From: an uncultured delta proteobacterium
GTDB taxonomy: Bacteria; Desulfobacterota; Binatia; Binatales; Binataceae
Direction: 5' to 3'
Assembly (NCBI GenBank): GCA_963724765.1
Contig: CAVRVY010000004.1
Coordinates: 640,001-704,000 of the forward strand
Length of the DNA: 64,000 bases
Shown: piece after piece, positions 9,212 to 63,069 of the stretch
Layout: each line of letters opens with the position of its first letter
Numbering within the stretch: the stretch's first letter is position 1
Position numbers and translations under genes: made by a program
The notes under the pieces: model-generated
The model's database searches: none
Told to the model about the DNA's origin: nothing
Seen by the model: the letters and a program-made list of their open reading frames with translations, nothing else

Positions 9212-9227
9212 AGCAATATCAATGCCG
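9212..9227 (-). promoter_or_regulatory. Sigma-54 -24/-12 promoter candidate (efflux operon side)
   Basis: CGGCATTGATATTGCT, GG-N10-GC. Confidence 0.6.
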
Positions 9228-9273
9228 CAATTTCGGCCCGTTCTAAGACCAGAAATGCCTTTTCGGGATCGGC

Positions 9274-9314
9274 TGACTCCATTGGAGGCATTCAAAATGG
9301 CTCCAACGGAGTCA
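9274..9314. promoter_or_regulatory. Tandem palindromic enhancer (UAS) candidates
   Basis: TGACTCCATTGGAGGCA (9274-9290) and TGGCTCCAACGGAGTCA (9298-9314) between two divergent sigma-54 motifs. Confidence 0.65.
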
Positions 9315-9476
9315 GCCAAAGAATGATGCCACGGCCGGTCCCATCCACCGTACCCGCCTGAGTATCGGCGCTGAACGGTCGGGGCGGCGCCAACGAAACG
9401 CAGTCCCGACGAGTCTCGCAGAGCCGACCGCGAGACGCGCCCGAAAATGCAAGCCTCCTGCCGTTCGACTTCGCGC

Positions 9477-9492
9477 TGGCATGACAATCGCT
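9477..9492 (+). promoter_or_regulatory. Sigma-54 promoter candidate
   Basis: TGGCATGACAATCGCT, 23 bp before the ATG at 9516. Confidence 0.6.
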
Positions 9493-9515
9493 AGAAGATT
9501 AGGAGGCCTCAGCGA

Positions 9516-9698
9516 ATGCCGGTAAGCGTGGTCAGAACGCCCGAGGATGAAATCGCATGGGAGCGCGCGAAGGCTCGCGCCCGGGAAGAATATCCCGACG
9601 TTACCGGCGAGCGCTTCTACAGAATTGTGATGGCCATTTATAAGAAGATGATTCACTATCAGCCGCGGACGAGCCGCCCGCGCCGCGATCGAGGATAG
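9516..9698 (+). CDS. Small basic helical hypothetical protein (60 aa)
   Basis: Strong RBS AGGAGG; MPVSVVRTPEDEIAWERAKARAREEYP..FYRIVMAIYKKM. Confidence 0.75.
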   Translation: MPVSVVRTPEDEIAWERAKARAREEYPDVTGERFYRIVMAIYKKMIHYQPRTSRPRRDRG

Positions 9699-9702
9699 CT
9701 CG

Positions 9703-9950: not shown

Positions 9951-10856
9951 GTGGCTGCGAATATCAAGCGGGTTTTGGCGAAGCTTGGCTGGATGCGCGA
10001 ACAGGGCATTTGGCCCAATGGCCTTCGCTATCTGTGGACGGATGCTTTCGGCGTCGTCCTCCTCGTTTCGCTTTACCACGAATTGGGCCGGCCGGAGTTC
10101 GTCGAACAAGCTGAGCGGGTAGTCGCCGACGTGGAGCATGTCCTGGGACGGGGACGCGGTCTGCGCATTGGCGAGGCTGCCGATCGCGATGGCCAGTACT
10201 TCCACTATCTCGCGATGTGGATGTACGCGCTGGGGTGCCTCGGCAACGTGATTCCGGAATACCGCGAAAGGGCGATTAGGCTGGTCGAGGACGTTCATTC
10301 CGCCTTCGTCATTCCCGGCCAGGGCGTCGTCTGGAAAATGCAGGAGGATCTGAGCGCACCCTATCCTGGCTTCGGACTCGGCTCGCTCGATCCGTTCCAC
10401 GGATACGTTGTTTACCGGCTACTCGATGAACGAGCGCTCGCCGAAGAGATCCGGCAAATGAAAACCATAGTTGACCGCAGTTATCGGGATCTGGTGATCA
10501 ATCAAGACCTTGGTCTTGGGATGATGCTTTGGATGACGCACTTCTTTCCCGAAGAACGTTGGGCACGCGTCCAGCGCGAGAGGAGTCTAGCGATACTTGA
10601 CCGGATGTGGATCGATCCGCCGGGCTATTTCTGTCGGGAGCCAGATGCACCGAAAGTCAAGTTTGCTTTTACCAACTACGGTGTGTCGCTTGGCCTGCAA
10701 TCGCGGGGTTGCTGGCCGGAGCGCGTCGCGCGCCTGAATTCGTTTTTCGAGGGATACCGTTCCGGAGATGACTACGACAAGGATGCGATTACGCACGTGA
10801 TGGCGTGCGTGTCGTACTTTCCAGGCCAATTTATTGTGCGACCAAGTCCGCAGTGA
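9951..10856 (+). CDS. Uncharacterised protein with RYLWTDAF motif (possible helical-barrel enzyme)
   Basis: 301-aa ORF with coding-like composition; motifs RYLWTDAFGV, GLRIG, DRDGQYFHYLAMW, WKM..DLS, FTNYG. Confidence 0.8.
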   Translation: MAANIKRVLAKLGWMREQGIWPNGLRYLWTDAFGVVLLVSLYHELGRPEFVEQAERVVADVEHVLGRGRGLRIGEAADRDGQYFHYLAMWMYALGCLGNVIPEYRERAIRLVEDVHSAFVIPGQGVVWKMQEDLSAPYPGFGLGSLDPFHGYVVYRLLDERALAEEIRQMKTIVDRSYRDLVINQDLGLGMMLWMTHFFPEERWARVQRERSLAILDRMWIDPPGYFCREPDAPKVKFAFTNYGVSLGLQSRGCWPERVARLNSFFEGYRSGDDYDKDAITHVMACVSYFPGQFIVRPSPQ

Positions 10857-11021
10857 ACACGCCAGCTGGTTTGGAGCGGACGGACCCTAGTTGAGGTGGA
10901 TGGCTGGGTCCAGTATGCGAGCCGGGAACGAGCTGCATCCAACGGACGCACAAATCCAGGGATAACTGTCGCTGTCGGCCGCGCACTTCGCTGATTCCGC
11001 GCTACCGTTGGACTATTGTTC

Positions 11022-11037
11022 GGGCATAGCCTTTGCG
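11022..11037 (+). promoter_or_regulatory. Sigma-54 promoter candidate for rtcB
   Basis: GGGCATAGCCTTTGCG ending 15 bp before ATG 11053. Confidence 0.55.
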
Positions 11038-11052: not shown

Positions 11053-12489
11053 ATGAACCTGGTCAAGATAAACGATTTTCTCTGGGAGATTCCCAGGCAG
11101 GGGGCGATGTTGGTCCCGGGGCGGCTCTACGTAAGCGCCTCAATGCTGGAAGATCTCCGCGACGATCCCGCTTTGACCCAGGTCGCCAATGTCGCTTGCC
11201 TTCCTGGAATCGTGGGCTACTCGCTCGCTATGCCCGATGTTCACTGGGGTTATGGTTTTCCGATTGGTGGTGTCGCGGCGATCGATGCGCGCACTGGCGT
11301 GATCTCTCCGGGCGGAGTGGGCTATGACATCAATTGCGGCGTCCGCCTTGCCCGCACCAACCTTCGTTACAAGGAGGTGGCGCCAAAGGTCGACCGGCTC
11401 GCCGACGCACTTTTCAACGCCATCCCGGCCGGAGTGGGCTCCGAGGAGGCCATACCGAGCCTCGGTATCGAAGAACTGCGGCAGCTCGTTCGGGAAGGCG
11501 CCGAATGGACGCTCCGCCACGGTTACGCGACCCAGGAAGACCTCGACCAAACAGAAGAAGGCGGCCGTCTGCCGATGGCTCAACCGGAGAAGGTCAGCGA
11601 GCACGCCTACCAGCGTGGCCGTAAGCAACTCGGAACGTTGGGTTCAGGCAATCATTTTCTGGAGGTCAGCCGGGTCGACCAGATCTACCAGCCTCGCGTT
11701 GCCGAAGCGCTGGGGCTCGAACTTGGGCAGGTTACCCTCCTGATTCATTCCGGCTCCCGCGGGCTCGGCCATCAAACCTGCGAGGATTACCTGAAGATAA
11801 TCGGCTCTGCGATGGCAGAGTACGAGATTGTCCTTCCCGACCGCCAGCTTGCGGCCGTGCCTATCGCCTCGCAAGAGGGACAGGACTACCTGGGCGCGAT
11901 GGCAGCGGCGGCCAACTTCGCATGGTGCAACCGCCAGGTCATGATGCACCTGGCGACGAACGCCTTCATGGAGGCGCTCGGGATTAGTCGGCGCGAGCTG
12001 GGGCTCACGCTCATCTATGATGTTTGCCACAACATCGCAAAGTTCGAGGACCATGTCGTCGACGGGGTGAAGCGGGTCCTGTGCGTCCATCGCAAAGGAG
12101 CGACTCGTGCGTTCGGCCCGGGCCATCCGGAGCTCCCCAAGGCGTACCGGCACCTCGGCCAACCCGTTCTGATCCCGGGTGACATGGGACGTTATTCATT
12201 CGTGCTCATCGGGCTGGAGGGAGCGATGCGCGAAACGTTCGGCTCGTCATGCCACGGCGCGGGACGCTTGATGAGCCGCACCCAGGCAAAGCGCAAGGCG
12301 CGCGGCCGCGATCTCTTTGCGGAACTTGGAGCCATGGGCGTGACGGTCCGCGCACAGAGTCGGGCGGGCGTGGCCGAAGAGATGCCGGAATCCTACAAGG
12401 ATGTCGCTGAGGTAGTTGAGGTGCTCGAGGCCGCGCGGGTTACGCAGAGAGTTGCCAGACTCAAACCCTTCGCGGTAATCAAGGGTTGA
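11053..12489 (+). CDS. rtcB: RNA ligase RtcB (long archaeal/eukaryal-like type)
   Basis: MPDVHWGYGFPIGGV, GYDINCG, LGSGNHF, IHSGSRG, HNIA, HRKGAT, PGDMG, HGAGR all intact. Confidence 0.96.
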   Translation: MNLVKINDFLWEIPRQGAMLVPGRLYVSASMLEDLRDDPALTQVANVACLPGIVGYSLAMPDVHWGYGFPIGGVAAIDARTGVISPGGVGYDINCGVRLARTNLRYKEVAPKVDRLADALFNAIPAGVGSEEAIPSLGIEELRQLVREGAEWTLRHGYATQEDLDQTEEGGRLPMAQPEKVSEHAYQRGRKQLGTLGSGNHFLEVSRVDQIYQPRVAEALGLELGQVTLLIHSGSRGLGHQTCEDYLKIIGSAMAEYEIVLPDRQLAAVPIASQEGQDYLGAMAAAANFAWCNRQVMMHLATNAFMEALGISRRELGLTLIYDVCHNIAKFEDHVVDGVKRVLCVHRKGATRAFGPGHPELPKAYRHLGQPVLIPGDMGRYSFVLIGLEGAMRETFGSSCHGAGRLMSRTQAKRKARGRDLFAELGAMGVTVRAQSRAGVAEEMPESYKDVAEVVEVLEAARVTQRVARLKPFAVIKG

Positions 12490-14858: not shown

Positions 14859-15287
14859 CTAAGACCGAATAGTTAGTACCGGGCAAGTGGCGCTACGCAC
14901 CACCGCTTCCGCGACGCTGCCAAGCAACAGATGAGGGAGCCCGGATCGTCCGTGCGTGGCCATTACGATAAGATCGGCGCCAACCTCGTGAGCCGTGGCC
15001 AAGATGTTCTTTGGAATATGCGCGGCGAACGCAAGCTTGGTGTGGAGCTGATTTTTGATTCCGACTAACTCGGCGTCCGCTATCCTCTGAAGGCGCTGAC
15101 GAGCCGACAGGTCACGTTGGGGCTCAAGACTTTGAACGATTTCGGGCGCCGTTGGGATGATGGTGATGACATGCAACAGATGCAGCGTCGCATCCATCTG
15201 TGCCGCAAGCTGCGCCGCATGCTTCACGGCCGCGAGGGAATTCTCGTCAAAGTCGACCGGGCAAAGAACAGTCTGATAGCGGTGCAT
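14859..15287 (-). CDS. Universal stress protein
   Basis: LCPVDFDENS..LLHV; ADLIVMATHGRSG..LLGSVAEAVVRSATCPVLTI. Confidence 0.95.
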   Translation of the reverse strand: MHRYQTVLCPVDFDENSLAAVKHAAQLAAQMDATLHLLHVITIIPTAPEIVQSLEPQRDLSARQRLQRIADAELVGIKNQLHTKLAFAAHIPKNILATAHEVGADLIVMATHGRSGLPHLLLGSVAEAVVRSATCPVLTIRS

Positions 15288-15352: not shown

Positions 15353-16969
15353 TTACATCGGAGCGACGGACTGCTTCAGCTCTTTTGGTTCGGGTAGCTC
15401 GGTCAGCGTCGCCTCGCTGAGCAAAAGCAGGCTCGCCACCGAAACCGCGTTCTCCAGTGCGACACGCACGACTTTGGTCGGATCGATTATTCCCTTCTCG
15501 ACCAGGTTCACGTATTCCTTGCGCGCCGCATCGAATCCCAGATCGCCCTTGCCGGTCCGCATCTGGTGCACTACCACGCCCCCATCGACCCCGGAGTTTT
15601 CAGCCAACTGACGGGTAGGGATCTCCAGCGCCCGCTTGAGTATCTGGAGCCCGGTACGTTCGTCGCCCTCGCATTTGCTTTCCTCGTTTTCCAGAGCATC
15701 GATCGCGCGCAGCAGAGCGAGCCCGCCGCCCGGGATGATTCCCTCGGCCACGGCGGCTTTGGTCGCGCTGATCGCATCGTCGAAAGCCTCCTTGCGGCTC
15801 TTCATTTCGGCCTCCGACGGCGCACCGACGCGAATAACCGCGACTCCGCCGGAGAGCTTGGCCAGTCGTTCCTGGAGTTTCTCTCTGTCGTAGTCGCTGG
15901 TCGTCTTGTCGATCAGCTGGCGGAGCTGCAGCTTGCGCCCTTCGATGGCGCGCTTGTCGCCAAGACCGCCGATTATCTTGGTCGTATCGTGGTCGACCAC
16001 CACACGCTTTGCCCTCCCAAGTTGCGCGAGGTCCAATGCTTCGAGCCGGGCACCGATCTCTTCCGAAGCGACGCGGCCACCAGTCAGGATGGCGATATCC
16101 TCAAGTATCTCCTTGCGCCGGTCGCCGAAGCCCGGCGCCTTGACGGCTACACAGCGCAACGCGCCGCGAAGCTTGTTCACCAGCAACGTCGCCAGGGCTT
16201 CACCTTCGATATCCTCGGCGATGAGGAGCAGCGCCTGTCCGGCCTGGACAATCTGCTCGAGCACATGGACCAGATCCTTCATCACGGTTATCTTGTGGTC
16301 CGTAAGCAGAATGACTGCATCTTCGAGCACCGCCTCCATTTTGTCGGGGTCGGTCACGAAGTATGGTGACACGTAACCACGGTCGAACTGCAAACCCTCG
16401 ACGACCTCGAGGTTGGTCTCGGTGGTTTTCGATTCCTCCACCGAAATGACACCATCGCCGCCGACCTTCTCCATCGCGTCGGCCACCAGCTCGCCCATCG
16501 CGGGCTCGTTATGCGCCGAAATCGTCGCGATCTGCATCTTCTCCAGCCGGCTCTTGACCGGGCGGGAAAGCGCACGCAGGCTCTCGACAGCAATTCGAAC
16601 ACTACGGTCGAGCCCACGCTTTATGTCGATTGCGCTCGCGCCCGCAGCGACGTTGCGCACTCCATCGGCGAAGATTGCTTCGGCCAGCATGGCGGAGGTG
16701 CTGGTACCGTCGCCCACGCTGTCTCCCGTACGCTCTGCGGCCTGACGAATCATCTGGGCCCCAAGGTTCTCTATCGCATCCTTGAGGTTGATCTCCTTGG
16801 CGATCGTCACGCCGTCGTTGCAAACCAGCGGCGGGCCGAACGAGCGCTGGATAAGCACACACTTCGATTTGGGCCCGAGCGTGATCCGAACCGCGTCGGC
16901 CAGTGCCTTTGCCCCGCGGAGCAGCTTCTCCCGCGCCTCCGAACTGAAAAAGAGCTGGGTGTGTTCCAT
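15353..16969 (-). CDS. groEL: Chaperonin GroEL paralog (no adjacent groES)
   Basis: TLGPK, NDGVTIAKEI, GDGTST, EGLQFDRGY, KAPGFGDRRK, LQERLAKLSGGVAVI, GIIDPTKVVR. Confidence 0.96.
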   Translation of the reverse strand: MEHTQLFFSSEAREKLLRGAKALADAVRITLGPKSKCVLIQRSFGPPLVCNDGVTIAKEINLKDAIENLGAQMIRQAAERTGDSVGDGTSTSAMLAEAIFADGVRNVAAGASAIDIKRGLDRSVRIAVESLRALSRPVKSRLEKMQIATISAHNEPAMGELVADAMEKVGGDGVISVEESKTTETNLEVVEGLQFDRGYVSPYFVTDPDKMEAVLEDAVILLTDHKITVMKDLVHVLEQIVQAGQALLLIAEDIEGEALATLLVNKLRGALRCVAVKAPGFGDRRKEILEDIAILTGGRVASEEIGARLEALDLAQLGRAKRVVVDHDTTKIIGGLGDKRAIEGRKLQLRQLIDKTTSDYDREKLQERLAKLSGGVAVIRVGAPSEAEMKSRKEAFDDAISATKAAVAEGIIPGGGLALLRAIDALENEESKCEGDERTGLQILKRALEIPTRQLAENSGVDGGVVVHQMRTGKGDLGFDAARKEYVNLVEKGIIDPTKVVRVALENAVSVASLLLLSEATLTELPEPKELKQSVAPM

Positions 16970-17417: not shown

Positions 17418-17855
17418 TCAATGCGCTGCTTCGAGCGGAATCTTCTTGGCCCCCACCTCCTTGGCGATAGGCATCGTGACCTCGACGACTCCGTTCTTGA
17501 ACGTGGCCTTGATCTTATCGGTCTGGGCTCCCTCGGGCAGAGTCGTGTGGCGCTCGAACGCGCCGTACGAAACCTCACGTCGGAAGTAGTTTTCCTTTTT
17601 CACTTCCTGTTTGTCTTTGCGCTCGCCCTTGATCATCAGGACGTTTCCAAGCACACTCACGTCGATATCCTTAGGATCGAGCCCCGGCACGTCCGCGCGA
17701 ACGACCACGTTCCCGTCCTTGACGTAGCTCTCGATGGGCAGCTTAAGTTCGCCCTCTTCCTCGAAGTCCTCGAAGAACCGTGGGAACCGAGTCTCGAAGC
17801 GCCGCGCCCAGCGCTCGAGGTCCGAAAACGGCCGCCATGGTTGTAGTTCTCGCAT
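17418..17855 (-). CDS. Hsp20/alpha-crystallin small heat-shock protein
   Basis: ADVPGLDPKDIDV, IKGERK, REVSYGAFER, ATFKNGVVEV, C-terminal IPL. Confidence 0.95.
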   Translation of the reverse strand: MRELQPWRPFSDLERWARRFETRFPRFFEDFEEEGELKLPIESYVKDGNVVVRADVPGLDPKDIDVSVLGNVLMIKGERKDKQEVKKENYFRREVSYGAFERHTTLPEGAQTDKIKATFKNGVVEVTMPIAKEVGAKKIPLEAAH

Positions 17856-17908: not shown

Positions 17909-17924
17909 AGCAATCATCGGGCCA
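17909..17924 (-). promoter_or_regulatory. Sigma-54 promoter candidate for hsp20-ZnF-groEL-usp
   Basis: TGGCCCGATGATTGCT. Confidence 0.7.
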
Positions 17925-18073
17925 ATGAATCAACCGCATAGCCATCACATCTACTAGTTAAAAGTCGCACACTCCGGGGCGCGTGCTTCCGATCGACGCA
18001 CAGCCGAACAAGCCGGCTGTGTCCGATCGCACCACGGGAAATTCTGATTTCGGCCGATTGCAAGGCAATTGTA

Positions 18074-18089
18074 TGGCGCGTCTCTTGCG
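18074..18089 (+). promoter_or_regulatory. Sigma-54 promoter candidate for zinc-ribbon gene
   Basis: TGGCGCGTCTCTTGCG. Confidence 0.65.
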
Positions 18090-18150: not shown

Positions 18151-18375
18151 ATGGCAAACCAGAACCCGATAACGTGTTCGCACTGCGGAAGCAGGAACAT
18201 GCATCTCGGCGAACGCGCAGAGGGCGGCATAAACGCCTACTGCGCCCGTTGCGGTATGCTTGCAAAGGAGTGCGCGCCTACTTTCTGCGGGCGCTGCGGC
18301 AAAAAAGTCGCCGAAGAGTTACTCGATCGTCACTATTTTTGCGCGCAGTGCCACGATCTTCCGTCCGCCGCCTAG
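18151..18375 (+). CDS. Small double zinc-ribbon protein
   Basis: 74 aa with four CxxC (CSHC, CARC, CGRC, CAQC); RBS GAGAGGG. Confidence 0.75.
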   Translation: MANQNPITCSHCGSRNMHLGERAEGGINAYCARCGMLAKECAPTFCGRCGKKVAEELLDRHYFCAQCHDLPSAA

Positions 18376-18494: not shown

Positions 18495-18965
18495 TCAAGC
18501 AGAGCCGGTCCGACGATGCGGCCGACAAATCCCCGCCAGCGTGCGCCCAACCTCGGCGTCGCAAACCTCGGGCTGCCATCCGCCGCGCGTGCGCTGAGCT
18601 TCGCGCGCGATGTCGTTGATGGAAATGATACCGACGAGGACGCCCTGATCATTTACGACTGGCAGACGCCTGACCTGGTTGTCATGCATCAATGCCTCTG
18701 CCGTCCTCAGGTCATCGCTCGCCCTACACGAGACAACATTGTGTGCCATCACGCTGGCAACGGCGATTTCAAAAAGCGGCCTTCGCTGTGTATATGCCGC
18801 CATACAAATATCGCGATCGGTCAACATCCCGACCGCGTGGCCGTCATCGCCGGCCACCGGCACGCATCCGCAATTGTTCTCCCACATAATCTGTGCGGCG
18901 GCGCTGAGTGCATCGTCATGCCCACAGACCTTGACGTCGGGGGTCATAACTCTTCGGACTTCCAT
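18495..18965 (-). CDS. CBS-pair protein (Hrp1/Rv2626c-like)
   Basis: VMTPDV, CGCVPV, GMLTDRDI, QVRRLPVV, GIISINDI; RBS AGAGG before ATG 18965. Confidence 0.92.
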   Translation of the reverse strand: MEVRRVMTPDVKVCGHDDALSAAAQIMWENNCGCVPVAGDDGHAVGMLTDRDICMAAYTQRRPLFEIAVASVMAHNVVSCRASDDLRTAEALMHDNQVRRLPVVNDQGVLVGIISINDIAREAQRTRGGWQPEVCDAEVGRTLAGICRPHRRTGSA

Positions 18966-19069
18966 GATTTTCCTCTTGCGACCCATGGGCAACATGGTGA
19001 ATCCTGCCGGATCTCACCGAAGAAAAGGTGCGAGCCCGGGGGCTCCCGTCCCGCGTGCGGCTATTTCGC

Positions 19070-21431: not shown

Positions 21432-21447
21432 TGGCTTATGTTTTGCT
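21432..21447 (+). promoter_or_regulatory. Sigma-54 promoter candidate for polX
   Basis: TGGCTTATGTTTTGCT. Confidence 0.7.
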
Positions 21448-21502
21448 CACGCGAAAGTAGTGCGTAACCCTTTGGTGTAGGACCGGCCGTCGAGTGACCG
21501 CG

Positions 21503-25121: not shown

Positions 25122-25137
25122 AGCATCAGACGTGCCA
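25122..25137 (-). promoter_or_regulatory. Sigma-54 promoter candidate
   Basis: TGGCACGTCTGATGCT, near-consensus, 23 bp before ATG 25098. Confidence 0.75.
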
Positions 25138-25185: not shown

Positions 25186-25223
25186 CCTGCCGAAAGGAGA
25201 CACCGCTGGTGCCATAGGAGTCA
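25186..25223. promoter_or_regulatory. Tandem UAS candidates
   Basis: CCTGCCGAAAGGAGACA (25186-25202, partial) and TGGTGCCATAGGAGTCA (25207-25223), 21 bp apart. Confidence 0.5.
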
Positions 25224-26878: not shown

Positions 26879-26894
26879 AGCAATCTTTAGGCCA
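26879..26894 (-). promoter_or_regulatory. Sigma-54 promoter candidate for cytochrome c pair
   Basis: TGGCCTAAAGATTGCT. Confidence 0.7.
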
Positions 26895-27227
26895 GTTCCC
26901 TGTGGAGCGAGCATTACAATAGATTTGTCGTGCGCAGAGCGGGGCCTGACGCATGAATGCTCGGGTGCGGCGCGGGCGAATTGCACCATCCAAACCTTCC
27001 TCTGTATCCAAAGGGAACAACCCGCACAGCGTGCGGTGGTGTTTTATTGTTTTCGTGCGCGCTCACGCATCGAAGCGGCAAGGGTGCTGAAGCCGAGAGC
27101 TCAAAGTCTTCAACCGAGTTATCGTTCATGGACTAGCGGATTGTGGCTCTCCAGGTAGCACGCCGGCATTTCAGCGGCGCCGGCCTTTGGCCTTCCGTGG
27201 GTCTCTTCTATCGAAAGATCCTGCCCA

Positions 27228-27243
27228 TGGCACAGGGAATGCT
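27228..27243 (+). promoter_or_regulatory. Sigma-54 promoter candidate
   Basis: TGGCACAGGGAATGCT. Confidence 0.7.
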
Positions 27244-28160: not shown

Positions 28161-28176
28161 AGGCATGCTTCATGCT
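28161..28176 (+). promoter_or_regulatory. Sigma-54 promoter candidate
   Basis: AGGCATGCTTCATGCT upstream of GTG 28204. Confidence 0.55.
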
Positions 28177-28846: not shown

Positions 28847-28863
28847 TGCCTCCATTGGCGCCA
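28847..28863. promoter_or_regulatory. UAS candidate upstream of acsA operon
   Basis: TGCCTCCATTGGCGCCA, about 115 bp before the acsA start. Confidence 0.5.
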
Positions 28864-34296: not shown

Positions 34297-34592
34297 TCTC
34301 CCATGGAGCCTTGGGTGAGATATCTACAGGTTGCAGCTTCGAGGAATGCTACAGTTGAATACTCGCAGTAGGCAGTATCCCCTCGACATGGCGGGCGGGC
34401 ATATGTCGCGGGTCTGGATACTCGCCTGCACCCGGCGATGCCTTGCTTGCCCCTTTCCAATGCCTTGGCGCGTGTCGGGAACCGACATCGCTGGCGGCGC
34501 AGGTTCCAATCGGCGACACCGTGATGCATCCAGCGGAACCATCACAACACCGTGATGCTTTCTCCCTCGCTGATACGCGGCCGTGGGCGTTT

Positions 34593-34608
34593 TGGCATGT
34601 TCCATGCT
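34593..34608 (+). promoter_or_regulatory. Sigma-54 promoter candidate
   Basis: TGGCATGTTCCATGCT; partial UAS-like GGTTCCAATCGGCGACA at 34502-34518. Confidence 0.7.
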
Positions 34609-38593: not shown

Positions 38594-38631
38594 TGGCGCT
38601 AATGGACACAGCGCTGACGCCATCGGAGTCA
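38594..38631. promoter_or_regulatory. Tandem UAS candidates
   Basis: TGGCGCTAATGGACACA (38594-38610) and TGACGCCATCGGAGTCA (38615-38631), 21 bp apart. Confidence 0.6.
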
Positions 38632-38669: not shown

Positions 38670-38685
38670 TGGTGTGATCATTGCT
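38670..38685 (+). promoter_or_regulatory. Sigma-54 promoter candidate for HPF-CSD gene
   Basis: TGGTGTGATCATTGCT. Confidence 0.6.
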
Positions 38686-40484: not shown

Positions 40485-40500
40485 TGGCGCGTTGCTTGCT
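40485..40500 (+). promoter_or_regulatory. Sigma-54 promoter candidate for hsp20-CBS-GYD-BON-prs-dksA operon
   Basis: TGGCGCGTTGCTTGCT. Confidence 0.75.
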
Positions 40501-44926: not shown

Positions 44927-45467
44927 CAGCCGCCGCGCGGCGGCATGTAGAGGATGCGGTCGCGTGATTCCCGAGGGCGCGCCCTTCGTGCGCACGCGGT
45001 CATCTAGTCCTGCGCTGCGCAGGCGGGTTTCAGGGGCGAGGCGACTGCCGCCGCTTGCCAATTCAGGGATTCGGGCTGGTTTCGTTCTGTCCCGTTTTTG
45101 GCACGAGTGCCAGGATGATCTCGAAACCTTTATAAAACTGTGTGAATTTTCCCCCAACGAAGCGCGAATCGTCCGACAGGCTGAACCACGCGCGAATCTC
45201 AGGCACGAAGAGCGCTGCGACGAAGTTCAGCCAGCCGAAATCAGGTTTGATGTCGACTCGAGCCATCGTGCGTTCCAGCAGCGGAACGAACTCGCAGGCA
45301 GGCGGGAGAGCGCGTATATGTCGCGCCGACCTGCCAACGACTGAATGCAGCGCAGCGGTGACTTTTAAGGACCCATCCACCTTTGCGTCAGTGTTGCCGA
45401 TGAAATCAGGTCCGGACGTTTCGCAAACGCCAGAAGGTTTCTCATGGTAGGCTGGTGAGTTAGCCGC

Positions 45468-45483
45468 AGGCACACACATTGCT
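45468..45483 (+). promoter_or_regulatory. Sigma-54 promoter candidate
   Basis: AGGCACACACATTGCT. Confidence 0.55.
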
Positions 45484-46051: not shown

Positions 46052-46133
46052 AGCGGCGATCATGCCAATAGACTTTCCCCGATTTTGCGTCTTCTGTCGA
46101 TTCCTCGCGTCAGCCGTGTTTCCTTGGGAGACA
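46052..46133 (-). promoter_or_regulatory. Sigma-54 promoter plus UAS candidate retained upstream of USP remnant
   Basis: TGGCATGATCGCCGCT (46052-46067, minus) and TGTTTCCTTGGGAGACA (46117-46133). Confidence 0.5.
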
Positions 46134-48744: not shown

Positions 48745-48760
48745 AGCAAATAATGCGCCG
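48745..48760 (-). promoter_or_regulatory. Sigma-54 promoter candidate
   Basis: CGGCGCATTATTTGCT. Confidence 0.6.
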
Positions 48761-52715: not shown

Positions 52716-53033
52716 AGCGCCGAAGTAGCCAAGGGCCCTTCGGATAGCGATGAAGCTCGCCGCCAAAGTCGCGATCGCGATGAGGCTCCTTATTACGAAA
52801 TTGCATCGGCCGTCGACTCCTTGACCCGGAATGCATTCGGAGATTCGGTCAGCTATGGGGTGAAGATCTTGCTATATCGGCAAGAATTACAGCCTGGCAA
52901 GGTGTCGCGATCGCGGCGAAAGACGATGGCCGAGAGCGAGTTCGCGAATAAAAAGCGCCGCAGCATGGCGTAAACTCGTCAGGTTTTCCCGCTTTGGCGT
53001 CGGCCGCGATATTCAGAAGGTTTGGAAATCCGT

Positions 53034-53049
53034 TGGCACGTTCTCCGCA
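53034..53049 (+). promoter_or_regulatory. Sigma-54 promoter candidate
   Basis: TGGCACGTTCTCCGCA. Confidence 0.6.
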
Positions 53050-56394: not shown

Positions 56395-58275
56395 ATGAAT
56401 TGTCGAAAGAAGGAAGACCGGATTCGGCGTCTCGAATTCGGCGCCAATTTGACCGAGGGGGGCGTCCTCTTTCGGGTGTGGGCGCCGCTGGCGGCGCGTC
56501 TCTCCGTCGGCCTTACCAGCCCGCGCCGCGCGGTCCTGCCTATGGATCGGGACGCGGACGGCATCTTCAGCGCATTCGCAAAAGATCTGGCGGCCGACGC
56601 GGAGTACTACTATGAATTTGCGCCCGACCGCCGGCGTCCCGATCCGGTCTCGCGTTTTCAGCCGCGCGGAGTCCATGACGCTTCTCGAATCGTCGACCCG
56701 GACGCCTTCATCTGGACCGATCAGGACTGGAAAGGGCGTGCTCTGGAAGATTTCATAATCTACGAACTTCATACCGGAGCCTTCACGCCCCAGCGAACGT
56801 TCGAGGGCGTAATCGACCGGCTAGCCTACCTGCGCGAACTCGGCATCACGGCGATCGAGCTTATGCCGGTTGCGGCGTTTCCCGGCTCTCGCAATTGGGG
56901 TTACGACGGCGCCTATCTTTATGCCCCGCATGCCGAATATGGAGGACCTGTCGGACTCAAGCGGTTGGTCGACGCCTGTCATCGCGAGGGACTCGCCGTC
57001 GTGCTTGACGTCGTCTACAACCACCTGGGCCCGGAAGGAAATTATCTTGGCGAGTACGGCCCATACTTTACCGACCGCTATCGAACGCCATGGGGCGCGG
57101 CGATCAACTTCGACGGTCCGCAGAGCGACGCGGTAAGACGCTTCTTCATCGACAATGCTCTATACTGGCTCACTGAGTACCACGTCGACGCGCTACGGCT
57201 CGATGCGGTTCACGAGATCTTCGACTTCGGCGCGTGGCATGTACTGCGCGAGATGGCCGAGGCCTTTCATCGGCAGGCACGGCTGCTCGGGCGCAATGCG
57301 TGGCTTATCGCCGAGAGCGATTTGAATGATCCACGCGTGATCAATTCATCCACAATAGGCGGTCATGGGCTCGATGCTCAATGGAATGACGATTTTCACC
57401 ATTCACTACATACCCTGCTGACCGATGCCAGGAATGGCTATTTCGCCGACTTCGGCCGGATCGCGGATCTGCGCAAGGCGATAACGGAGGGATTCGTCTA
57501 TGACGGTCGCCGATCGGCTTATCGTCAGCGCCGCCATGGGGCTTCGTCCGCGTCGAATCCCGGCCGGCAATTCGTCATGTTCAATCAGAATCACGACCAG
57601 ATCGCCAATGCGGATGGGGGGCGGCGCCTCGCCGAGCTACTTGTGCCCGACCAGCAGAAGCTTGCGGCGGTGATCCTGATCTGCGCGCCTGGCCTGCCGA
57701 TGCTCTTCATGGGCGAGGAGTTCGGGGCCTCGTCACCCTTCAACTATTTTACCAGCTTCACCGAGCCGACGCTGGCCAACGCGGTATCCGAGGGACGCAG
57801 GCGCGAATACGGGGCCTTTTTCACGGACCGGGCCTTCCCCGATCCCCAGGCGCCCGAAACTCTCGCCGGCTCGCAAATTGATTGGGCGGAACCCGCGCTC
57901 TCGCCGCATCGCGAGTTGCTCGCTCTCCACCGCGCGCTCATCGTGCTCCGCAAGGGGAATCGTTGCTTGTCCAACTGCCGCAAAGACTTGACTGACGTTA
58001 GCTTCAGCGAGGATGAGCGATGGATGGTAATCCGGCGGGGCGATCCGTCGGGTAAAATCACCCTGGTATTGTGCAACTTGAGTTCGGAGACGCGCACAAT
58101 ACCGATGCCGTGCGAGGGTTCGGACTTCCGGCTCGCGCTCTTTACGGGCGAGCCGCGATTCGGTGCAATGGCTGCGGCTGCGTCGCCGCCTGCCCTCCTC
58201 CATTCTTCCAGCGCCGGAATCGATCTCGATCCATTCAGCGCGGCCATTTATTTCGGCGGTACCAGCCACTCATAA
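56395..58275 (+). CDS. treZ: Malto-oligosyltrehalose trehalohydrolase
   Basis: FRVWAP, PDPVSRFQP, IYELHTG, NWGYDG, DVVYNHLGPEGNYL, LRLDAVH, QWNDDFHH, QNHDQI, MLFMGEE. Confidence 0.96.
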   Translation: MNCRKKEDRIRRLEFGANLTEGGVLFRVWAPLAARLSVGLTSPRRAVLPMDRDADGIFSAFAKDLAADAEYYYEFAPDRRRPDPVSRFQPRGVHDASRIVDPDAFIWTDQDWKGRALEDFIIYELHTGAFTPQRTFEGVIDRLAYLRELGITAIELMPVAAFPGSRNWGYDGAYLYAPHAEYGGPVGLKRLVDACHREGLAVVLDVVYNHLGPEGNYLGEYGPYFTDRYRTPWGAAINFDGPQSDAVRRFFIDNALYWLTEYHVDALRLDAVHEIFDFGAWHVLREMAEAFHRQARLLGRNAWLIAESDLNDPRVINSSTIGGHGLDAQWNDDFHHSLHTLLTDARNGYFADFGRIADLRKAITEGFVYDGRRSAYRQRRHGASSASNPGRQFVMFNQNHDQIANADGGRRLAELLVPDQQKLAAVILICAPGLPMLFMGEEFGASSPFNYFTSFTEPTLANAVSEGRRREYGAFFTDRAFPDPQAPETLAGSQIDWAEPALSPHRELLALHRALIVLRKGNRCLSNCRKDLTDVSFSEDERWMVIRRGDPSGKITLVLCNLSSETRTIPMPCEGSDFRLALFTGEPRFGAMAAAASPPALLHSSSAGIDLDPFSAAIYFGGTSHS

Positions 58276-58293: not shown

Positions 58294-61200
58294 TCATTCC
58301 TGATTTCGCGCCTGATTCCGCTCCTGATTCCGCGCGATTCCGCGAAGCGGCGGACGATCGTCGTCGCCGCTCTCGGCCACTATCAGATGCGGCAGATATA
58401 ACCGCACGGTGGTGCCCTGCCCCTCCTCGCTATCGATCTTCACGTGGCCGCCGGATTGCTTGACGAACCCGTACACTTGCGAAAGTCCGAGACCGGTGCC
58501 CTGCCCGATTTCCTTGGTGGTGAAAAAGGGATCGAAGGCGCGCTCGAGGACTTCCTTGCTCATCCCGATACCATCATCGGTGACCGCGATCATCACGTAC
58601 CGGCCCTCCGGCAATTCGTCGTGCCGGGACGAGTATTCGCCGTCAAGGTAGGTATTGGCGGTTTCGATTGTAACTTTACCGCCATCCGCCATCGCATCGC
58701 GGGCGTTGACGGCGAGGTTCAAAATCGCGCTTTCGAGCTGATTATGGTCGGCGGAAACTCGCCACAGGTCCGGCCGCCAGCACCATCTCGACTTCAATAT
58801 TATCGCCCACCGTGGTGCGCAACAGTTCTGACATGCCGGTGACGAGCCGATTCACATCGAGGGATTCGGGTCTGAGCGGCTGCTTGCGGGCGAAAGCCAG
58901 CAGGCGCTGGGTCAGAGTCGCGGCGCGCTGTCCGCCGCGCGTGGCGGCATCGGTGAGCCGGAGCAAATCCTCACCGACCGCGAAGTCGGACCGCACGACG
59001 CGGCGGCGCAAGGCGTCAAGGTTGCCCATGATCACCTGCAGCAGATTGTTGAAGTCGTGAGCGACGCCGCCCGTGAGCTGTCCGATCAGCTCCAGCTTCT
59101 GCGCCTGGCGAAACGCCTCCTCGGCCTGCAGCCGCTCCTGGATTTCGGCCGCCACCCGCTGCTCGAGGGTTTCGTTCAGGCGCAGCAAATTGTCCTCCGC
59201 CAGGCGGCGATCGTTGATGTCCTGCACGATCAGAACCACGTATTGCGCTCCACCATCGGGGTCGGTCTAGCAGCGACACACTATTGGCAATCCAGGCGAT
59301 CGATCCGTCGGGGCGCACCTTGCGCACCTCGATCGTAAAGGGCCGCCCCATTTCGAACATCCGATCCAGCAGTTCGTTGAAGCGGGGAACGTCCTCGGAA
59401 TAGGTAAGCTCGATCAGCCGCATGCCGAGCAGCTCCTGCATCGAGCGGCCGACGATCTCGCAGTATTTCCGGTTCACCAGCACGTAGCGGCCCGAAAGAT
59501 CGATCTGCGCGATCCCTACGTTGGCTTCGGCGAAAATCGACCGGAGCCGCTGCTCGCTGTCCTGCAGGATGCGCGCGGCGCGGCGGCGTTCGCCAGCGAG
59601 ATTGATGTTGCTGCGCACCCGGGCGAGCAGCTCGCGCGCGCTGAAGGGCTTGAGCAGGTAATCGTCGGCGCCCGCCTCGATCCCCTCGATGCTGGCCTCC
59701 TCGCCGGCCCGCGCCGACAGCAATACCACCGGCACGTCGCTTAGCGCCGGATCGGCCCGCACCTCGCGCAGCACACCGAAACCATCGAGCCGCGGCATCA
59801 TCACGTCGCTCAGGATCAGATCGGGGCGGCGGCGCCGTGCCGCTGCCAACGCCTCCTCGCCATTGACCACGGTCTCGACTGTGTAGCGGTCCGAGAGCAG
59901 CTGGCACAGGTAGTCGAGCATATCGCCGTTGTCATCGGCCACCAGCACGAATGGCCGCTCGCCGCCCGGCATGGTAACTGTGACCGGCTCGAGCAGTTCT
60001 GCTTGAATTTCGATCTCCGGCCGCAACTGCTCGCCCGGCAACCATCGCAGCGCCTCTTCCACAAAGGCCTCGGCGCGATGTGCCGTCGAGGGCACTGTAC
60101 GCGCCGCGCCGATAGCCGCGGCTGGCAAATGAGCTTTGCCCACCGGGATCGAAACCGTAAAGCATGAGCCCTGCCCGGGAGCGCTGGTGACCTCGACGGT
60201 GGCACCGTGCAGGCGCGCCAGCTCCTGGACCAACGCGAGCCCAATGCCAGTGCCCTCATGCGTGCGGCCGTGCTGGCCCTCGATCCGGTGAAATCGCTCG
60301 AAGAGCCGCGGCAGTTCTTCCCTGGGAATTCCCCGTCCGGTGTCTCGAACGCGCAGCTCGACGCGGCGGTGGTCGGCGGACTCGCCCAGCGAAACCTCGA
60401 CCTCGCCTTCGAAGGTGTACTTGAACGCGTTCGAGATCAGGTTGAGGACGATCTTCTCCCACATGTCACGGTCAACGAAGGTCGGCTCCGTCACTGGTCG
60501 GCAATCGATCAAGTAGCGCAAGCCGGCCTTGTCCATCGCCGATTGAAACGTGCCGGCGAGGTCGGCGGTGTAGGCGGCAAGGTCAATCGGCTCGTAGAGC
60601 GCTTGAATCCTGCCCGCCTCCAGGCGCGAGAAATCGAGCAGCGTGTTGACGAGCTTCAAGAGCCGCAGACCATTGCGATACACCAGGTCAATCCATCCCC
60701 GCTCGACGGTGACCACACCGGGCTGAGTACTGCGCGACAGCACCTCCTCGAGCGGACTTAGCATCAGGGTGAGCGGCGTGCGGAACTCGTGGCTGGCATT
60801 CGAAAAAAAGGCGGTCTTCGCGCGGTCGATCTCGGCCAGCGCCTCTGCACGGCGCTTCTCGCGCTCATAGGCGCGCACGTCAGCCAGACCTGCCGCAATC
60901 TGCCCGGCCAGCAGATCGATAAATCCGCGGTACTCGTCATCCAGCGGACGGTGCGGGTTCAGGCCGATGATCATCACTCCGGCAGGCTGGTTCTGCGCCT
61001 GCTCCGCGATCGGAACGACGATCGCCTGTCGCGGCGGGATATTCCAGTCTCCGGTCGGCAAATCGCCGAAACGCACAGCCAGATCGTCAACGATCACGGC
61101 CTTCGAATCCGCAAGCGCCCGCTTAATCGGCCACTCGCCCGCATCCAACAGCAGTACGGAAGGCGCAGCGCGATGATTCGCGTGAATCCCAGAGCTGCAG

Positions 61201-61862
61201 GCCAGCTCAGCGTGCTCGCCGTCTTTCTGCATCAGATAGACGAGCGTGAACGGAACGTCGCGCTGATTTGTGGCCAGGCATTCGCTTACCGCGGCGAACA
61301 GGTTTGCGGCAGTCTGCCGGTTTGCGATCCGCGCACCGATGTCACGCAACAGGTGCAGACGCCGCTCGCCGATGAAGCGATCCGTGTCCTCGATAACCAC
61401 GCAAAGATGCCCGCCGATACCGCCCTCGTCGTCGGGCAACGGACTGTAAGAAAAAGTATGGAAGGTTTCTTCGGGATATCCCGAACGGTGAAGAATCAGC
61501 GGTAGATCTTGGTCATAAGTGGCGCGGCCGGTCGTCATGACCCCTTCGATCCGAGGCCCGATATCGTTCCAGATTTCATTCCATACCTTGCGCGAGGGCT
61601 TGCCCAGGGCCCACGGATGCTTGGTCCCAAGCGTCGGCTGGTAAGCATCGTTGTAGAAAAATGTCAGCTCGGGGCCCCATCCCATCCACATCGCGTAGCG
61701 GGAACCAAGCATGATCTGAACTGCCGTCCTCAGGCTCTGCGGCCACGACGTGGGCGGGCCGAGCGGCGTCTGCGACCAATCGAACTCGCGCATGCGCCGC
61801 ACCATCTCGCCGCCGCCCCCGAACAACTCAGCGCGCCTGGTTCTGCCGATGGCCGATCCCAT
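58294..61862 (-). pseudogene. Large hybrid sensor histidine kinase (PAS-GAF-HK-REC-PAS-HK) with two +1 frameshifts; final receiver absent
   Basis: DWSQTPLG, SHEFRTPL, NLISNAFK, GTGIGL, DVMMP, GGVAHDFNNLL, NLAVNARDAM, FDPFFTTK, GTGLGL; shifts at about 59268 and 58767. Confidence 0.88.
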
Positions 61863-62068
61863 TATGATATCCAGCCGAAAATTTGGACCTCTTCCTACCA
61901 GGTGATCCAGCAATCAGTCTATCCGATGCGCGCGAATCAGACGAGCAAGCGGCGTGATAGCGCACGATTGCGGCGGTACGCAATTCGCATCCGTGCACCG
62001 ACACAGCCGCTTCTTTAACGTAGCGAAATCAATGCCGAGGGACAGCACTAGACCGTGATCTCATCGGG

Positions 62069-62135
62069 ACAGAAATACTGATTCATTGGAAACAGAAATA
62101 CTGACTCATGGAGACGAAAATACTGACTGCGATGG
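62069..62135. repeat. Three imperfect 22-23 bp direct repeats in the HK/RR divergent intergenic region
   Basis: ACAGAAATACTGATTCATTGGAA / ACAGAAATACTGACTCATGGAG / ACGAAAATACTGACTGCGATGG. Confidence 0.85.
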
Positions 62136-62276
62136 CGCTAGAGGGATCTTTAGACATTGCAACGGCGCTTATTTGCTTGACGACCCGTTTACTTACGCTT
62201 AATTGCCTGTCAGCATGAATCTGATTCCACAGCCAACCGCAAACCTGTGCTGACATTTTTACATAGAGAAAACGGA

Positions 62277-62648
62277 TTGAGTGCAGCCAGCCTTTTGTTA
62301 GTTGACGATAACGACGACGTTCGCGAAGTTACCGCATTGCTGTTGCGCGATAGCGGATACGATGTGATCGAGGCACCCGGCGGCAGCGCCGCCTTGGCCG
62401 AGATCGACGCCAATCCTGCGATCGATCTGCTGATTGTCGATTTTGCAATGCCGGGGATGTCGGGAATCGAGCTGCTTGAACGAGCACGCGCCAAGCGTCC
62501 GGAAATCAGGGCGGTGTTCATCACCGGTTATGTTGATCACACTTCGGTCAAAGGCAAGTTCACCGACGAAATCGTGGTCAGAAAGCCCTTTACGATGGAC
62601 CAGCTCGCGCCCGCGGTGCGCAAGGCGTTGGGCCAATCAGAGGGGTGA
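62277..62648 (+). CDS. Stand-alone response regulator receiver
   Basis: LLVDDN, DLLIVDFAMPGMSG, FITGY, RKPF. Confidence 0.92.
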   Translation: MSAASLLLVDDNDDVREVTALLLRDSGYDVIEAPGGSAALAEIDANPAIDLLIVDFAMPGMSGIELLERARAKRPEIRAVFITGYVDHTSVKGKFTDEIVVRKPFTMDQLAPAVRKALGQSEG

Positions 62649-63053
62649 ACGCACCACTTGCGCCAGGGGCCAGCGCCTGCCCCAAATTAATCGCGCTTCG
62701 GAAAACCTTACCGGCACCAACCATTTCCAAGCCGATTTTATGGCTCTGATATCGATACCTGCATTTAACTGTCGCGATTTTTCCATCGCTCAGGTCACCG
62801 GCTCAGCCCTCGAGCACGTTGTTCGTCGCACTCGACATTGTTGATGCACCTCGTCGATAGGACCGAGTTCGGCTCTATCGAACTGTAGGTTGATCCGCGC
62901 GAGCCGGTACTTGATCCATACGCCAGGCTTTCAGTCCTCGATCATTCTTCACATGGCTGGGCCTCCCGGACTTCTTTCAAGCGAGCTGAAAAAGATTCAA
63001 CGCGTCAGCACGGTCATCAACATTTCTCACAATTCATAATGGGGTCTTTCCGA

Positions 63054-63069
63054 CGGCACAATTGTTGCT
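63054..63069 (+). promoter_or_regulatory. Sigma-54 promoter candidate for csbD
   Basis: CGGCACAATTGTTGCT. Confidence 0.7.

Follow-up and report, generated by a model that had tools for sequence, protein, structure and literature searches.

In Mycobacterium tuberculosis, DosR (DevR) is a response regulator of the NarL/LuxR type that acts through a DosR box at sigma-70-type promoters and is linked to heme-GAF kinases. Sigma-54 (RpoN) activators that lack a sensor domain are also known, as in PspF and HrpR/HrpS, and RtcR with rtcBA constitutes a sigma-54 module. The Binataceae are widespread uncultured bacteria of soils and sediments, and we know of no work on how their genes are regulated. Here, we describe a 64,000-nucleotide stretch of the genome of an uncultured Binataceae bacterium (G000:C4:640001-704000, hereafter the window; assembly of 5.4 Mb, 62% G+C, four contigs), in which -24/-12 promoters of the RpoN type, a common 17-bp palindrome and the gene of a sigma-54 activator lie among stress- and dormancy-type genes. 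The window is probably the core of a sigma-54 regulon of such genes under one activator family.

A low-oxygen regulon under sigma-54 has a precedent in Myxococcus xanthus. The sigma-54 activator NmpR acts there on 7 promoters and 23 genes by way of tandem GCGCA-N5-TGCGC sites; among the genes are those for a CBS protein, a universal stress protein (USP), a P-type ATPase together with cbb3 oxidase, and HemN together with a hemerythrin. NmpR itself is a response regulator and receives a phosphorelay from a separate globin-coupled kinase (PMC11841059). The statement of a first-pass annotation of the window, that dormancy and hypoxia regulons of this kind are not driven by sigma-54, has to be qualified by this precedent. 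A review describes the DosR dormancy regulon as well as the Lxa locus of Burkholderia cenocepacia, which comprises about 50 kb and about 50 genes, is induced as a block at low oxygen and is rich in USP genes and in metabolic, electron-transfer and regulatory genes (PMC12071387). In a literature search that covered few subscription journals, no published fusion of a globin domain to a sigma-54 activator was found, and no sigma-54 DosR-like regulon other than in the Nmp papers. The terms sigma, dormancy, universal stress, hypoxi-, trehalose and RpoN do not appear in the main genomic study of the phylum (PMC8262859).

Sigma-54 promoters and their common palindrome

Promoters were scored with a matrix of 16 positions built from the general sigma-54 consensus TGGCACG-N4-TTGCW and not from a database, so that the matrix is independent of the window. 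Iterative retraining at a 9-bit threshold made the matrix drift and was dropped; all counts refer to the initial matrix. Gene models come from a crude codon-usage caller for the genome at large, and the calls in the window were corrected with Pfam.

Computation shows that about 15-19 -24/-12 promoters stand in sense orientation before stress-gene operons of the window (Table 1). The 18 GG-N10-GC motifs listed by the first-pass annotation are all present, in position and on the strand. A scan for TGGC-N8-TGCT with at most one mismatch recovers 16 of them (11022 and 53034 have two mismatches) and yields 94 matches in the window against 63.6 ± 8.2 expected, a number reached in none of 100 shuffles. 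A 15.7-bit site missed in the first reading, 20927-20942(-), lies immediately before the activator gene. Together these 19 sites score 9.8-15.7 bits, with GG and GC 10 nt apart; 12 of the 18 reach at least 12 bits, the remaining six being 53034, 18074, 46052, 11022, 38670 and 48745. An additional match from our own scan, 9448(-), is probably spurious.

The matches are strongly biased in position and orientation. At 12 bits or more, 13 lie upstream of a gene in the sense direction, one in other intergenic DNA and one within a gene; the corresponding numbers are 11 and none elsewhere at 13 bits, and 15, two and three at 11 bits. At 12 bits, 500 dinucleotide-preserving shuffles of the intergenic DNA of the window averaged 0.38 matches (sd 0.61) and never exceeded 4. 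The density of sense matches is thus well above both the background and the other positions, and rpoN is present in the genome as a single copy with an intact 527-aa frame (Sigma54_DBD match of 203.8 bits), two outcomes in line with the first-pass proposal of sigma-54 wiring. Genome-wide, with the crude gene calls, matches of at least 12 bits occur at 170 per Mb in sense-upstream DNA, 42.8 in other intergenic DNA and 14.5 in genes, and because the sense-upstream density is so far above the other two, the matrix evidently sees a genuine RpoN signal in this organism. With the same calls, 10 of the 116 sense matches of the genome fall in the window, against an expected number of about 1.7. Among sliding 64-kb segments (mean 1.39 matches, sd 1.9, n = 1292), the top twelve listed all lie in C4:616-720 kb, with 10-11 matches each, and the region of the window is the densest in sigma-54 matches in the 5.4-Mb genome.

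The dense run starts at least 20 kb to the left of the window (C4:616000-640000). The island, which had been delimited as 9212 to 63069, extends further, as the promoter-plus-site pair at C4:638200 indicates. There, a gene for a Crp/Fnr-like regulator, a small glycine-rich open reading frame (ORF) and a BON gene that ends within the window (1-480) follow a promoter at 638200 with a palindrome at C4:638077.

When the 245 bp preceding the sites were searched for motifs by expectation-maximisation (EM), the result was a 17-bp palindrome, TGnnTCC-N3-GGAnnCA, with the best consensus TGTATCC-N3-GGATACA and the general form TGTnTCC-N3-GGAnACA. It is treated here as a putative activator site (upstream activator site, UAS), with distances measured from its centre to the TGGC of the -24 box. 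Exact enumeration of dyads (half-sites of 4-5 nt, spacers of 0-14) gave nothing in four or more upstream regions, and EM with mismatches was needed to find it. With up to two mismatches, the window contains 10 copies of the consensus TGTNTCCNNNGGANACA, where 1.55 ± 1.3 would be expected; none of 100 shuffles attained this number. A palindrome of at least 9 bits is centred 47-217 bp upstream of TGGC at 13 of 20 candidate promoters, where chance would give 0.04 per 255 bp. Three divergent promoter pairs have palindromes in common (9212/9477, 17909/18074 and 26879/27228), and the palindromes are often in tandem, 21-34 bp apart.

Since EM always yields some motif, the palindrome was also tested on DNA on which it had not been trained. 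A symmetrised matrix made from nine window sites has 111 matches outside the window, 32 of them intergenic; a sigma-54 match of at least 11 bits lies within 30-230 bp of 19 of the 111 and of 12 of the 32. For ten palindrome-preserving, column-permuted controls, the paired fraction is 0-7 of 64-175 overall and 0-5 of 11-32 in intergenic DNA. The site-plus-promoter module precedes paralogous stress genes at about ten other places in the genome: a DUF2267-Hsp20-Hsp20-DnaJ cluster, pyruvate:ferredoxin oxidoreductase (PFOR), a CBS-acetyl-CoA hydrolase-Hsp20 cluster, two hemerythrin paralogs, a USP-CBS fusion with an AAA_33 (Rv2004c-like) protein, a second phosphoribosyltransferase (PRTase)-hydrolase, a CBS protein near a fusion of HPF with a cold-shock domain (HPF-CSD) and a nitroreductase, and the Crp/Fnr-like regulator to the left of the window, whose operon runs into the BON gene. 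These are the same gene families as the targets in the window. The FNR/FixK box TTGAT-N4-ATCAA, which the first reading had not seen by eye, has 2 matches in the window against 1.26 expected, in agreement with that reading. From these sequence patterns, we infer that the palindrome is an enhancer bound by one sigma-54 activator family.

The candidate activator family and its predicted globin-fold domain

The activator encoded in the window has 389 aa and no N-terminal regulatory domain, its AAA+ domain beginning near residue 38. Its start is placed at ATG 20914 (Met30 of a frame open from 21001), because the 15.7-bit promoter lies inside the longer frame and this position aligns with the start of a paralog. 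The genome has four paralogs of this family, two of full length (about 500 aa) with an N-terminal domain and two without it. In all four, the recognition helix of the helix-turn-helix (HTH) domain reads ISRKKLY and the loop is GAFSGA or GAFTGA. A Response_reg domain was found neither in the window activator nor in the other three, and no paralog reaches an NCBIfam equivalog cut-off, the best being RtcR with 318 bits against 650. In all, the genome has 31 matches to Sigma54_activat (PF00158) at E <= 0.001, 28 of them strong, and one of the matches lies within the window.

The genes of the sensor-less copies have a layout of their own. In six of six loci, one in the window and the others from five further genomes of the genus, the sigma-54 promoter scores 14.7-15.7 bits, a palindrome is centred 10-12 nt upstream of TGGC and the start codon follows the motif by 9-12 nt; the sensor-less paralog on C1 repeats this layout of promoter, palindrome and ATG. 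With the start codon at about +1 to +3, a near-leaderless mRNA is predicted. No sigma-54 promoter was found before the two full-length paralogs, which are therefore probably synthesised constitutively and controlled by a signal. A CBS-pair protein of 202-204 aa (window 19070-19678(-); L092:2764-3372; L093:2720-3334; 77-89% identity) directly follows the sensor-less activator in three of the six genus loci and might conceivably control it, and a paralog of this protein heads a regulon operon at C1:345837-346445.

The closest relatives of the window activator, 55-60% identical, are found in Candidatus Binataceae metagenome-assembled genomes (MAGs), and the orthologs in other Binataceae genera all carry the N-terminal domain of about 185 aa. 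We examined 80 loci around activator relatives, 12 with such a 55-60% identical activator and 68 with more distant ones. Palindrome-and-promoter pairs occur in six of the 12 (13 pairs), compared with one of the 68. The genes behind the pairs in other Binataceae encode Hsp20, CBS, USP-CBS, HPF-CSD, DUF2267, cytochrome c and P-type ATPase proteins. Conservation of the motif upstream of orthologs, which the first-pass annotation had proposed as a check, is seen for the PRTase-hydrolase genes: in an alignment of six upstream regions from five genomes of the genus, the palindrome or palindromes and the -24/-12 element are kept. Unchanged throughout are the palindrome, a further TGTnTCC block placed 21 bp downstream of it and TGATGC of the -12 element; the rest has diverged. 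Relative to the UAS of 25122(-) in the window, this second conserved block (TGTCTCC) of the alignment lies about 21 bp nearer the promoter.

Upstream of one PRTase-hydrolase ortholog, L103 (G319), about 58 bp have been deleted in comparison with the other genus members, and the second palindrome thereby abuts a CGGCAC-N6-TGCG promoter; the resulting layout resembles that of the sensor-less activator genes. Further afield, receiver-type sigma-54 activators 42-45% identical to that of the window occur in Paraburkholderia panacisoli, Ralstonia mojiangensis, Noviherbaspirillum humi and MAGs (L066, L026, L064, L053, L063). Around them lie 6-7 sigma-54 matches of at least 12 bits per 21 kb, before genes for CsbD, DUF883, a short-chain dehydrogenase, a glycine-zipper protein and hemerythrin. 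Cultured Burkholderiales may thus have a general-stress-like cluster of their own that is wired to sigma-54.

The N-terminal domain of the full-length activators has no match in Pfam or NCBIfam. Its structure was modelled with AlphaFold (AF2) from an alignment of 12 sequences, with a mean predicted local distance difference test (pLDDT) score of 88.4. Foldseek against PDB gave no match at E <= 0.001; the best had E of about 0.01, and every row was a globin or phycobiliprotein. In a wide VIA-align search, the N-domain of RsbR came first (Z 15.3, root-mean-square deviation (rmsd) 2.3 Å over 128 residues), followed by the sensor globins BpeGReg (15.0), DosC (14.6), AfGcHK (14.2), GsGCS (14.0) and HemAT (13.6), all above the Z of about 13 below which matches of helical models may be unspecific. 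The best matches have an rmsd of 2.3-3.1 Å over 128-144 residues, and among the matches listed, 50 of 50 belong to the globin superfamily (globins, globin-like sensor domains and phycobiliproteins). On the predicted model, the domain is a sensor-globin fold coupled to an output domain.

Among 1.84 billion representative sequences, a profile search found 233 relatives at E <= 0.001. In the 47 of these that were run against Pfam, 33 have Sigma54_activat, four are histidine kinases, seven have GAF and one is fused to hemerythrin. One distant relative, a histidine kinase, reaches the Pfam Protoglobin threshold and thereby ties the family to the sensor globins. Of the 81 Binataceae genomes sampled, 66 have the domain, as do 28 of the 30 genera; the numbers are 62 of 77 and 27 of 29 when four unpublished genomes with one match each (G216, G241, G243, G258) are left aside. 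In an even sample of the phylum, the domain is present in four of 201 genomes. Tyr54, His57, His118 and His145 are conserved in it, the invariant Tyr54 presumably standing at the B10 tyrosine position of globins.

Residues from about 43 to 110 include an S100/pseudo-EF-hand-like stretch, W-x3-Y-x2-hFGD-x-R-x-LS-x2-EF. An EF-hand identity was considered on account of weak S100/EF-hand rows in a profile search of PDB chains (E 0.0035-0.1, with one anti-anti-sigma factor row at E 0.11) and was rejected, the predicted fold being that of a globin.

The P-type ATPase genes at 46550-48744(-) and 49883-52440(+) are both interrupted: the former has N-terminal domains only (47446-48744), followed by a 299-aa frame without a Pfam match, and the latter is broken into two frames that overlap at 50431-50464. 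The cause could be frameshifts, gene decay or errors in the assembly. A 92-aa integrase-core (rve_3) fragment at 52528-52806(-), between the ATPase and the TreYZ operon, is a transposase remnant within the island. Upstream of the activator gene, the frame at 21093-21400(-) ends in a stretch resembling an OsmC-type C-terminus, and a 62-aa ORF is open there, with no match in Pfam; it may be a decayed OsmC, and an intact OsmC gene is found in a paralogous island at C4:932254-932691. Near the right end, a lone HATPase_c piece (58294-58797(-)) stands beside a 948-aa hybrid kinase with GAF, HisKA, HATPase, REC and PAS domains (59016-61862(-)) and a single-domain receiver (62247-62648(+)).

Table 1. 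Candidate promoters, UAS palindromes and activator genes. Positions refer to the window unless a contig is given; UAS distances are from centre to TGGC.
Feature	Position	Strand	Score (bits)	Sequence	Context
-24/-12 promoter	9212..9227	-	12.2	CGGCATTGATATTGCT	UAS 55 and 79 bp upstream; FtsX/ABC/HlyD/OEP efflux operon; weak case, next start codon (efflux operon) 250-274 nt downstream
Two tandem UAS	9274..9314		21.3, 20.2		Centres 9282, 9306; common to divergent 9212(-)/9477(+)
-24/-12 promoter	9477..9492	+	13.7	TGGCATGACAATCGCT	Before 60-aa ORF (9516-9698), 301-aa unknown (9951-10856)
UAS	10934..10950		18.0		80 bp upstream of RtcB promoter
-24/-12 promoter	11022..11037	+	10.9	GGGCATAGCCTTTGCG	Before RtcB (11053-12489), ABC ATPase, ABC-2 permease
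-24/-12 promoter	17909..17924	-	14.0	TGGCCCGATGATTGCT	Before Hsp20 (17418-17855), 104-aa ORF, GroEL (15353-16969), USP (14859-15287)
Two UAS	17984..18034		16.1, 13.3		Centres 17992, 18026; common to divergent 17909(-)/18074(+)
-24/-12 promoter	18074..18089	+	11.7	TGGCGCGTCTCTTGCG	Before 58-aa zinc-ribbon-like ORF (18199-18375)
Sensor-less sigma-54 activator, 389 aa	19745..20914	-			AAA+ with GAFSGA loop, lid, HTH_8; then CBS-pair genes 19070-19678, 18495-18995
Activator-gene promoter	20927-20942	-	15.7	TGGCACGTCGTATGCT	ATG 20914 is 12 nt past motif
UAS-like palindrome	20945-20961	-	17.1		Abuts -24 box of activator promoter
-24/-12 promoter	21432..21447	+	13.6	TGGCTTATGTTTTGCT	Before PolX (21494-23206); no UAS found
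-24/-12 promoter	25122..25137	-	15.7	TGGCACGTCTGATGCT	Before PRTase-hydrolase fusion (23758-25098), 152-aa ORF; conserved in genus orthologs
UAS	25207..25223		16.9		78 bp upstream of 25122(-)
-24/-12 promoter	26879..26894	-	13.2	TGGCCTAAAGATTGCT	Before two cytochrome c genes (26380-26802, 25798-26253)
UAS	27003..27019		17.3		Between divergent 26879(-) (117 bp) and 27228(+) (217 bp)
-24/-12 promoter	27228..27243	+	15.2	TGGCACAGGGAATGCT	Before hemerythrin-like protein (27277-27768)
-24/-12 promoter	28161..28176	+	12.3	AGGCATGCTTCATGCT	Before 190-aa unknown (28204-28776); no UAS found
Orphan UAS	28847..28863		17.8		Centre 28855; 114 bp before acetate-CoA ligase (28977-30749)/2-oxoacid dehydrogenase E1-E2/ACP-like cluster
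UAS	34525..34541		16.5		60 bp upstream of 34593(+)
-24/-12 promoter	34593..34608	+	15.5	TGGCATGTTCCATGCT	Before DUF2267 (ATG 34637, end 35068)
UAS	38615..38631		17.6		47 bp upstream of 38670(+); weaker site centred 38602
-24/-12 promoter	38670..38685	+	10.6	TGGTGTGATCATTGCT	Before HPF-CSD fusion (38784-39329)
-24/-12 promoter	40485..40500	+	14.0	TGGCGCGTTGCTTGCT	Before Hsp20, CBS, GYD, BON, PRPP synthase, DksA-like, cytochrome c (40557-44926)
UAS	45392..45408		13.3		68 bp upstream of 45468(+)
-24/-12 promoter	45468..45483	+	13.9	AGGCACACACATTGCT	Before 74-aa membrane protein (45607-45831)
-24/-12 promoter	46052..46067	-	11.4	TGGCATGATCGCCGCT	Weak case; faces 42-codon USP-like remnant (45860-45988)
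UAS	46117..46133		18.0	TGTTTCCTTGGGAGACA	Exact consensus; 58 bp upstream of 46052(-)
-24/-12 promoter	48745..48760	-	9.8	CGGCGCATTATTTGCT	Weak, doubtful; before P-type ATPase N-terminal piece (47446-48706); no UAS found
-24/-12 promoter	53034..53049	+	~12.0	TGGCACGTTCTCCGCA	Before 76-aa membrane protein, TreY (53445-56384), TreZ (56395-58275); no UAS found
-24/-12 promoter	63054..63069	+	13.4	CGGCACAATTGTTGCT	Before CsbD (ATG 63116, end 63322); no UAS found
Full-length paralog	C4:1718391-1719920				Extra N-terminal domain of about 185 aa
Full-length paralog	C1:243091-244593				Extra N-terminal domain of about 185 aa
Sensor-less paralog	C1:339543-340700				79% identical to window activator; same start residue, same promoter

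Competing explanations and a proposed circuit

The first-pass annotation had proposed a dormancy regulon rebuilt on RpoN and an enhancer-binding protein. The wiring part of this proposal is supported by the presence of rpoN, an activator gene in the island, the orientation bias and the recurring palindrome. The dormancy or hypoxia label is less secure: it was drawn from the Pfam-level inventory (USP, Hsp20, CBS, HPF, PRTase-hydrolase, AAA_33, P-type ATPase, hemerythrin, BON, CsbD and TreYZ), and a general stress response would account for this inventory about equally well. Both signal and physiological role are here deduced from sequence and should be taken conditionally.

It is indeed plausible, if somewhat short of an even bet, that the genes constitute a general stress response, a counterpart of those of RpoS, SigB and EcfG, with non-heme, RsbR-like globin sensing and with oxygen not being the signal. 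Among the structural matches of the sensor, the N-domain of RsbR, which is non-heme, ranks first. The fifth predicted helix (residues 89-105), which from the order of helices and not from residue-level superposition is taken as the F-helix equivalent, has no conserved histidine, and the expected position of the proximal histidine is a leucine (Leu103) that is invariant in 12 of 12 sequences, which makes a non-heme, RsbR-like mode as likely as heme-based sensing of O2. Moreover, the targets include CsbD, OsmY/BON-like, OsmC, TreYZ, HPF, DksA/YteA-like, Hsp20 and GroEL proteins, all typical of general stress, and no RpoS was found at the TIGR02394 cut-off (best 284.5 bits against 378.7; the genome has 11 sigma-70-family matches). 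On the other side, heme-binding sensor globins score nearly as well (Z 14.0-15.0), and the conserved histidines 57, 118 and 145 could ligate a cofactor. Further, hemerythrin (three copies), c-type cytochromes, PFOR, nitroreductase, PRTase-hydrolase, Rv2004c-like AAA_33 and P-type ATPase speak for a low-oxygen or redox programme such as those of DosR and NmpR.

We regard it as unlikely that the window is a patchwork of separate small regulons, in which the sigma-54 promoters are real and answer to several unrelated activators and signals. Such an arrangement would account for the five promoters without a palindrome (before PolX, the unknown protein at 28161, the ATPase piece at 48745, TreYZ and CsbD), which may depend on another activator, and candidates are not lacking among the 28 strong Sigma54_activat matches of the genome. 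To the right of the window, at 3-6 kb, an NtrC-type activator of the response-regulator class is encoded along with a hybrid kinase; together with the hybrid kinase and receiver protein at 59016-62648, they could serve the palindrome-free promoters. This fragmentation is opposed by the single palindrome found at enhancer distance before 13 window promoters and about 10 elsewhere, by the co-occurrence of the module with one activator family across genomes, and by the common stress theme of the genes behind palindrome-bearing and palindrome-free promoters. That the motifs are chance or non-productive RpoN binding sites, of which the accessible part of a study of E. coli describes many within genes (PMC4591121), is very improbable and already disfavoured by the position and orientation bias (13/1/1, shuffle maximum 4 in 500), the conservation upstream of orthologs and the association with an enhancer-like palindrome.

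Several points nevertheless weigh against a single regulon under one activator family. Five of the 18 promoters listed in the first reading (21432, 28161, 48745, 53034 and 63054) have no palindrome, 40485 has a weak one only (9.3 bits, centre 40435), and the strong palindrome at 28855 is followed by no -24/-12 match. The palindrome of the sensor-less genes, at about -37, is too near for classical looping. The matches outside the window are not fully independent, because paralogs may have been copied along with their promoters. The palindrome is tied to the activator by co-occurrence, and another DNA-binding protein could bind it; any of the four paralogs could be the one that acts on the window. 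The sensor lacks the histidine expected of a heme globin in the F-helix equivalent. Finally, the sigma-54 matrix stems from a general consensus and not from a database, and genes across the genome were called with a crude caller of our own.

With these points in mind, a regulon under one activator family could be pictured as follows. A signal, for which oxygen, redox state and energy state are candidates, would activate the globin-type activator, the globin-fold domain gating the AAA+ motor of the full-length copies; the activator would assemble on the enhancers and open RpoN promoters, those of the sensor-less copies included. By analogy with PspF and with N-terminally truncated activators of the NtrC, XylR and DctD types, the sensor-less copies would be constitutively active once made and would amplify the response or lock it in, while the promoter-proximal palindrome may act as a brake by limiting their own synthesis. 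More speculatively, and as a tentative proposal, Binataceae may thus run a survival programme on RpoN in place of an RpoS-, SigB- or DosR-type regulator, with a one-component, globin-gated and possibly non-heme sigma-54 switch, in which the sensor-less, leaderless paralogs would form a bistable positive-feedback latch with a brake.

Sigma-54 would suit genes that are kept off during growth, since its promoters are silent without an activator, and the window offers a clear example of a dormancy or stress gene set rewired onto a different transcription machinery. Less usual are the fusion of a globin-fold sensor to a sigma-54 activator, the size and clustering of the regulon, and the sensor-less paralogs transcribed from sigma-54 promoters as predicted leaderless mRNAs, an unusual circuit element. 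Together, the cis-code of palindrome and -24/-12 element and a candidate master activator would make the survival programme readable in metatranscriptomes and testable in a heterologous host.

Comparison with known systems

The predicted N-terminal domain resembles those of the globin-coupled sensors and the RsbR stressosome domain (PDB 2bnl, 4uiq, 4zva, 5ohe, 2w31, 1or4) in its sensor-globin fold and in the long helix that leads into the output. It differs from the globin-coupled sensors in that the output is a sigma-54 AAA+ domain with HTH_8 and that no histidine is conserved in the F-helix equivalent. The window activator is like PspF in having no N-terminal regulatory domain, and like the RtcR-rtcBA module in that RtcB is among the predicted targets and RtcR is the best NCBIfam match (318 bits). 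Unlike either, it falls far below the cut-offs for RtcR (650 bits) and PspF (443.55 bits), and its gene has a sigma-54 promoter of its own with a predicted near-leaderless mRNA. We know of no PspA-like antagonist for it.

The likeness to DosR of M. tuberculosis, examined for the families of the target genes, extends to USP, Hsp20 (HspX), CBS (Hrp1), HPF-like, PRTase-hydrolase (Rv0571c-like), Rv2004c-like AAA_33 and P-type ATPase (CtpF-like) proteins, with a nitroreductase outside the window. Unlike DosR, the promoters here are of the -24/-12 type and go with an AAA+ activator. As far as the available sections of the source go, the Lxa locus of B. cenocepacia has gene families in common with the window and is likewise a large, clustered, USP-bearing island, whereas it is proposed to be under FixLJ/FixK and not RpoN, and no common enhancer or globin-type activator is described for it there (PMC12071387).

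In comparison with what the accessible text on NmpR describes, the globin fold is here either fused to the AAA+ activator or missing, there is no receiver domain, and the promoters, about 25-30, serve a much wider stress inventory. The NmpR box GCGCA-N5-TGCGC is not enriched in the window (8 matches against 11.7 expected). Since there is no receiver, the box is unenriched and the globin is fused to the activator, the present system would not be a member of the Nmp family and would rather function like it. To the extent that NmpRSTU is covered by the same text, the two resemble each other in the sigma-54 activator, the tandem palindromic enhancers, the CBS, USP, P-type ATPase and hemerythrin targets, the globin-type sensor atop the pathway and the presence of the regulator genes within the regulon itself.

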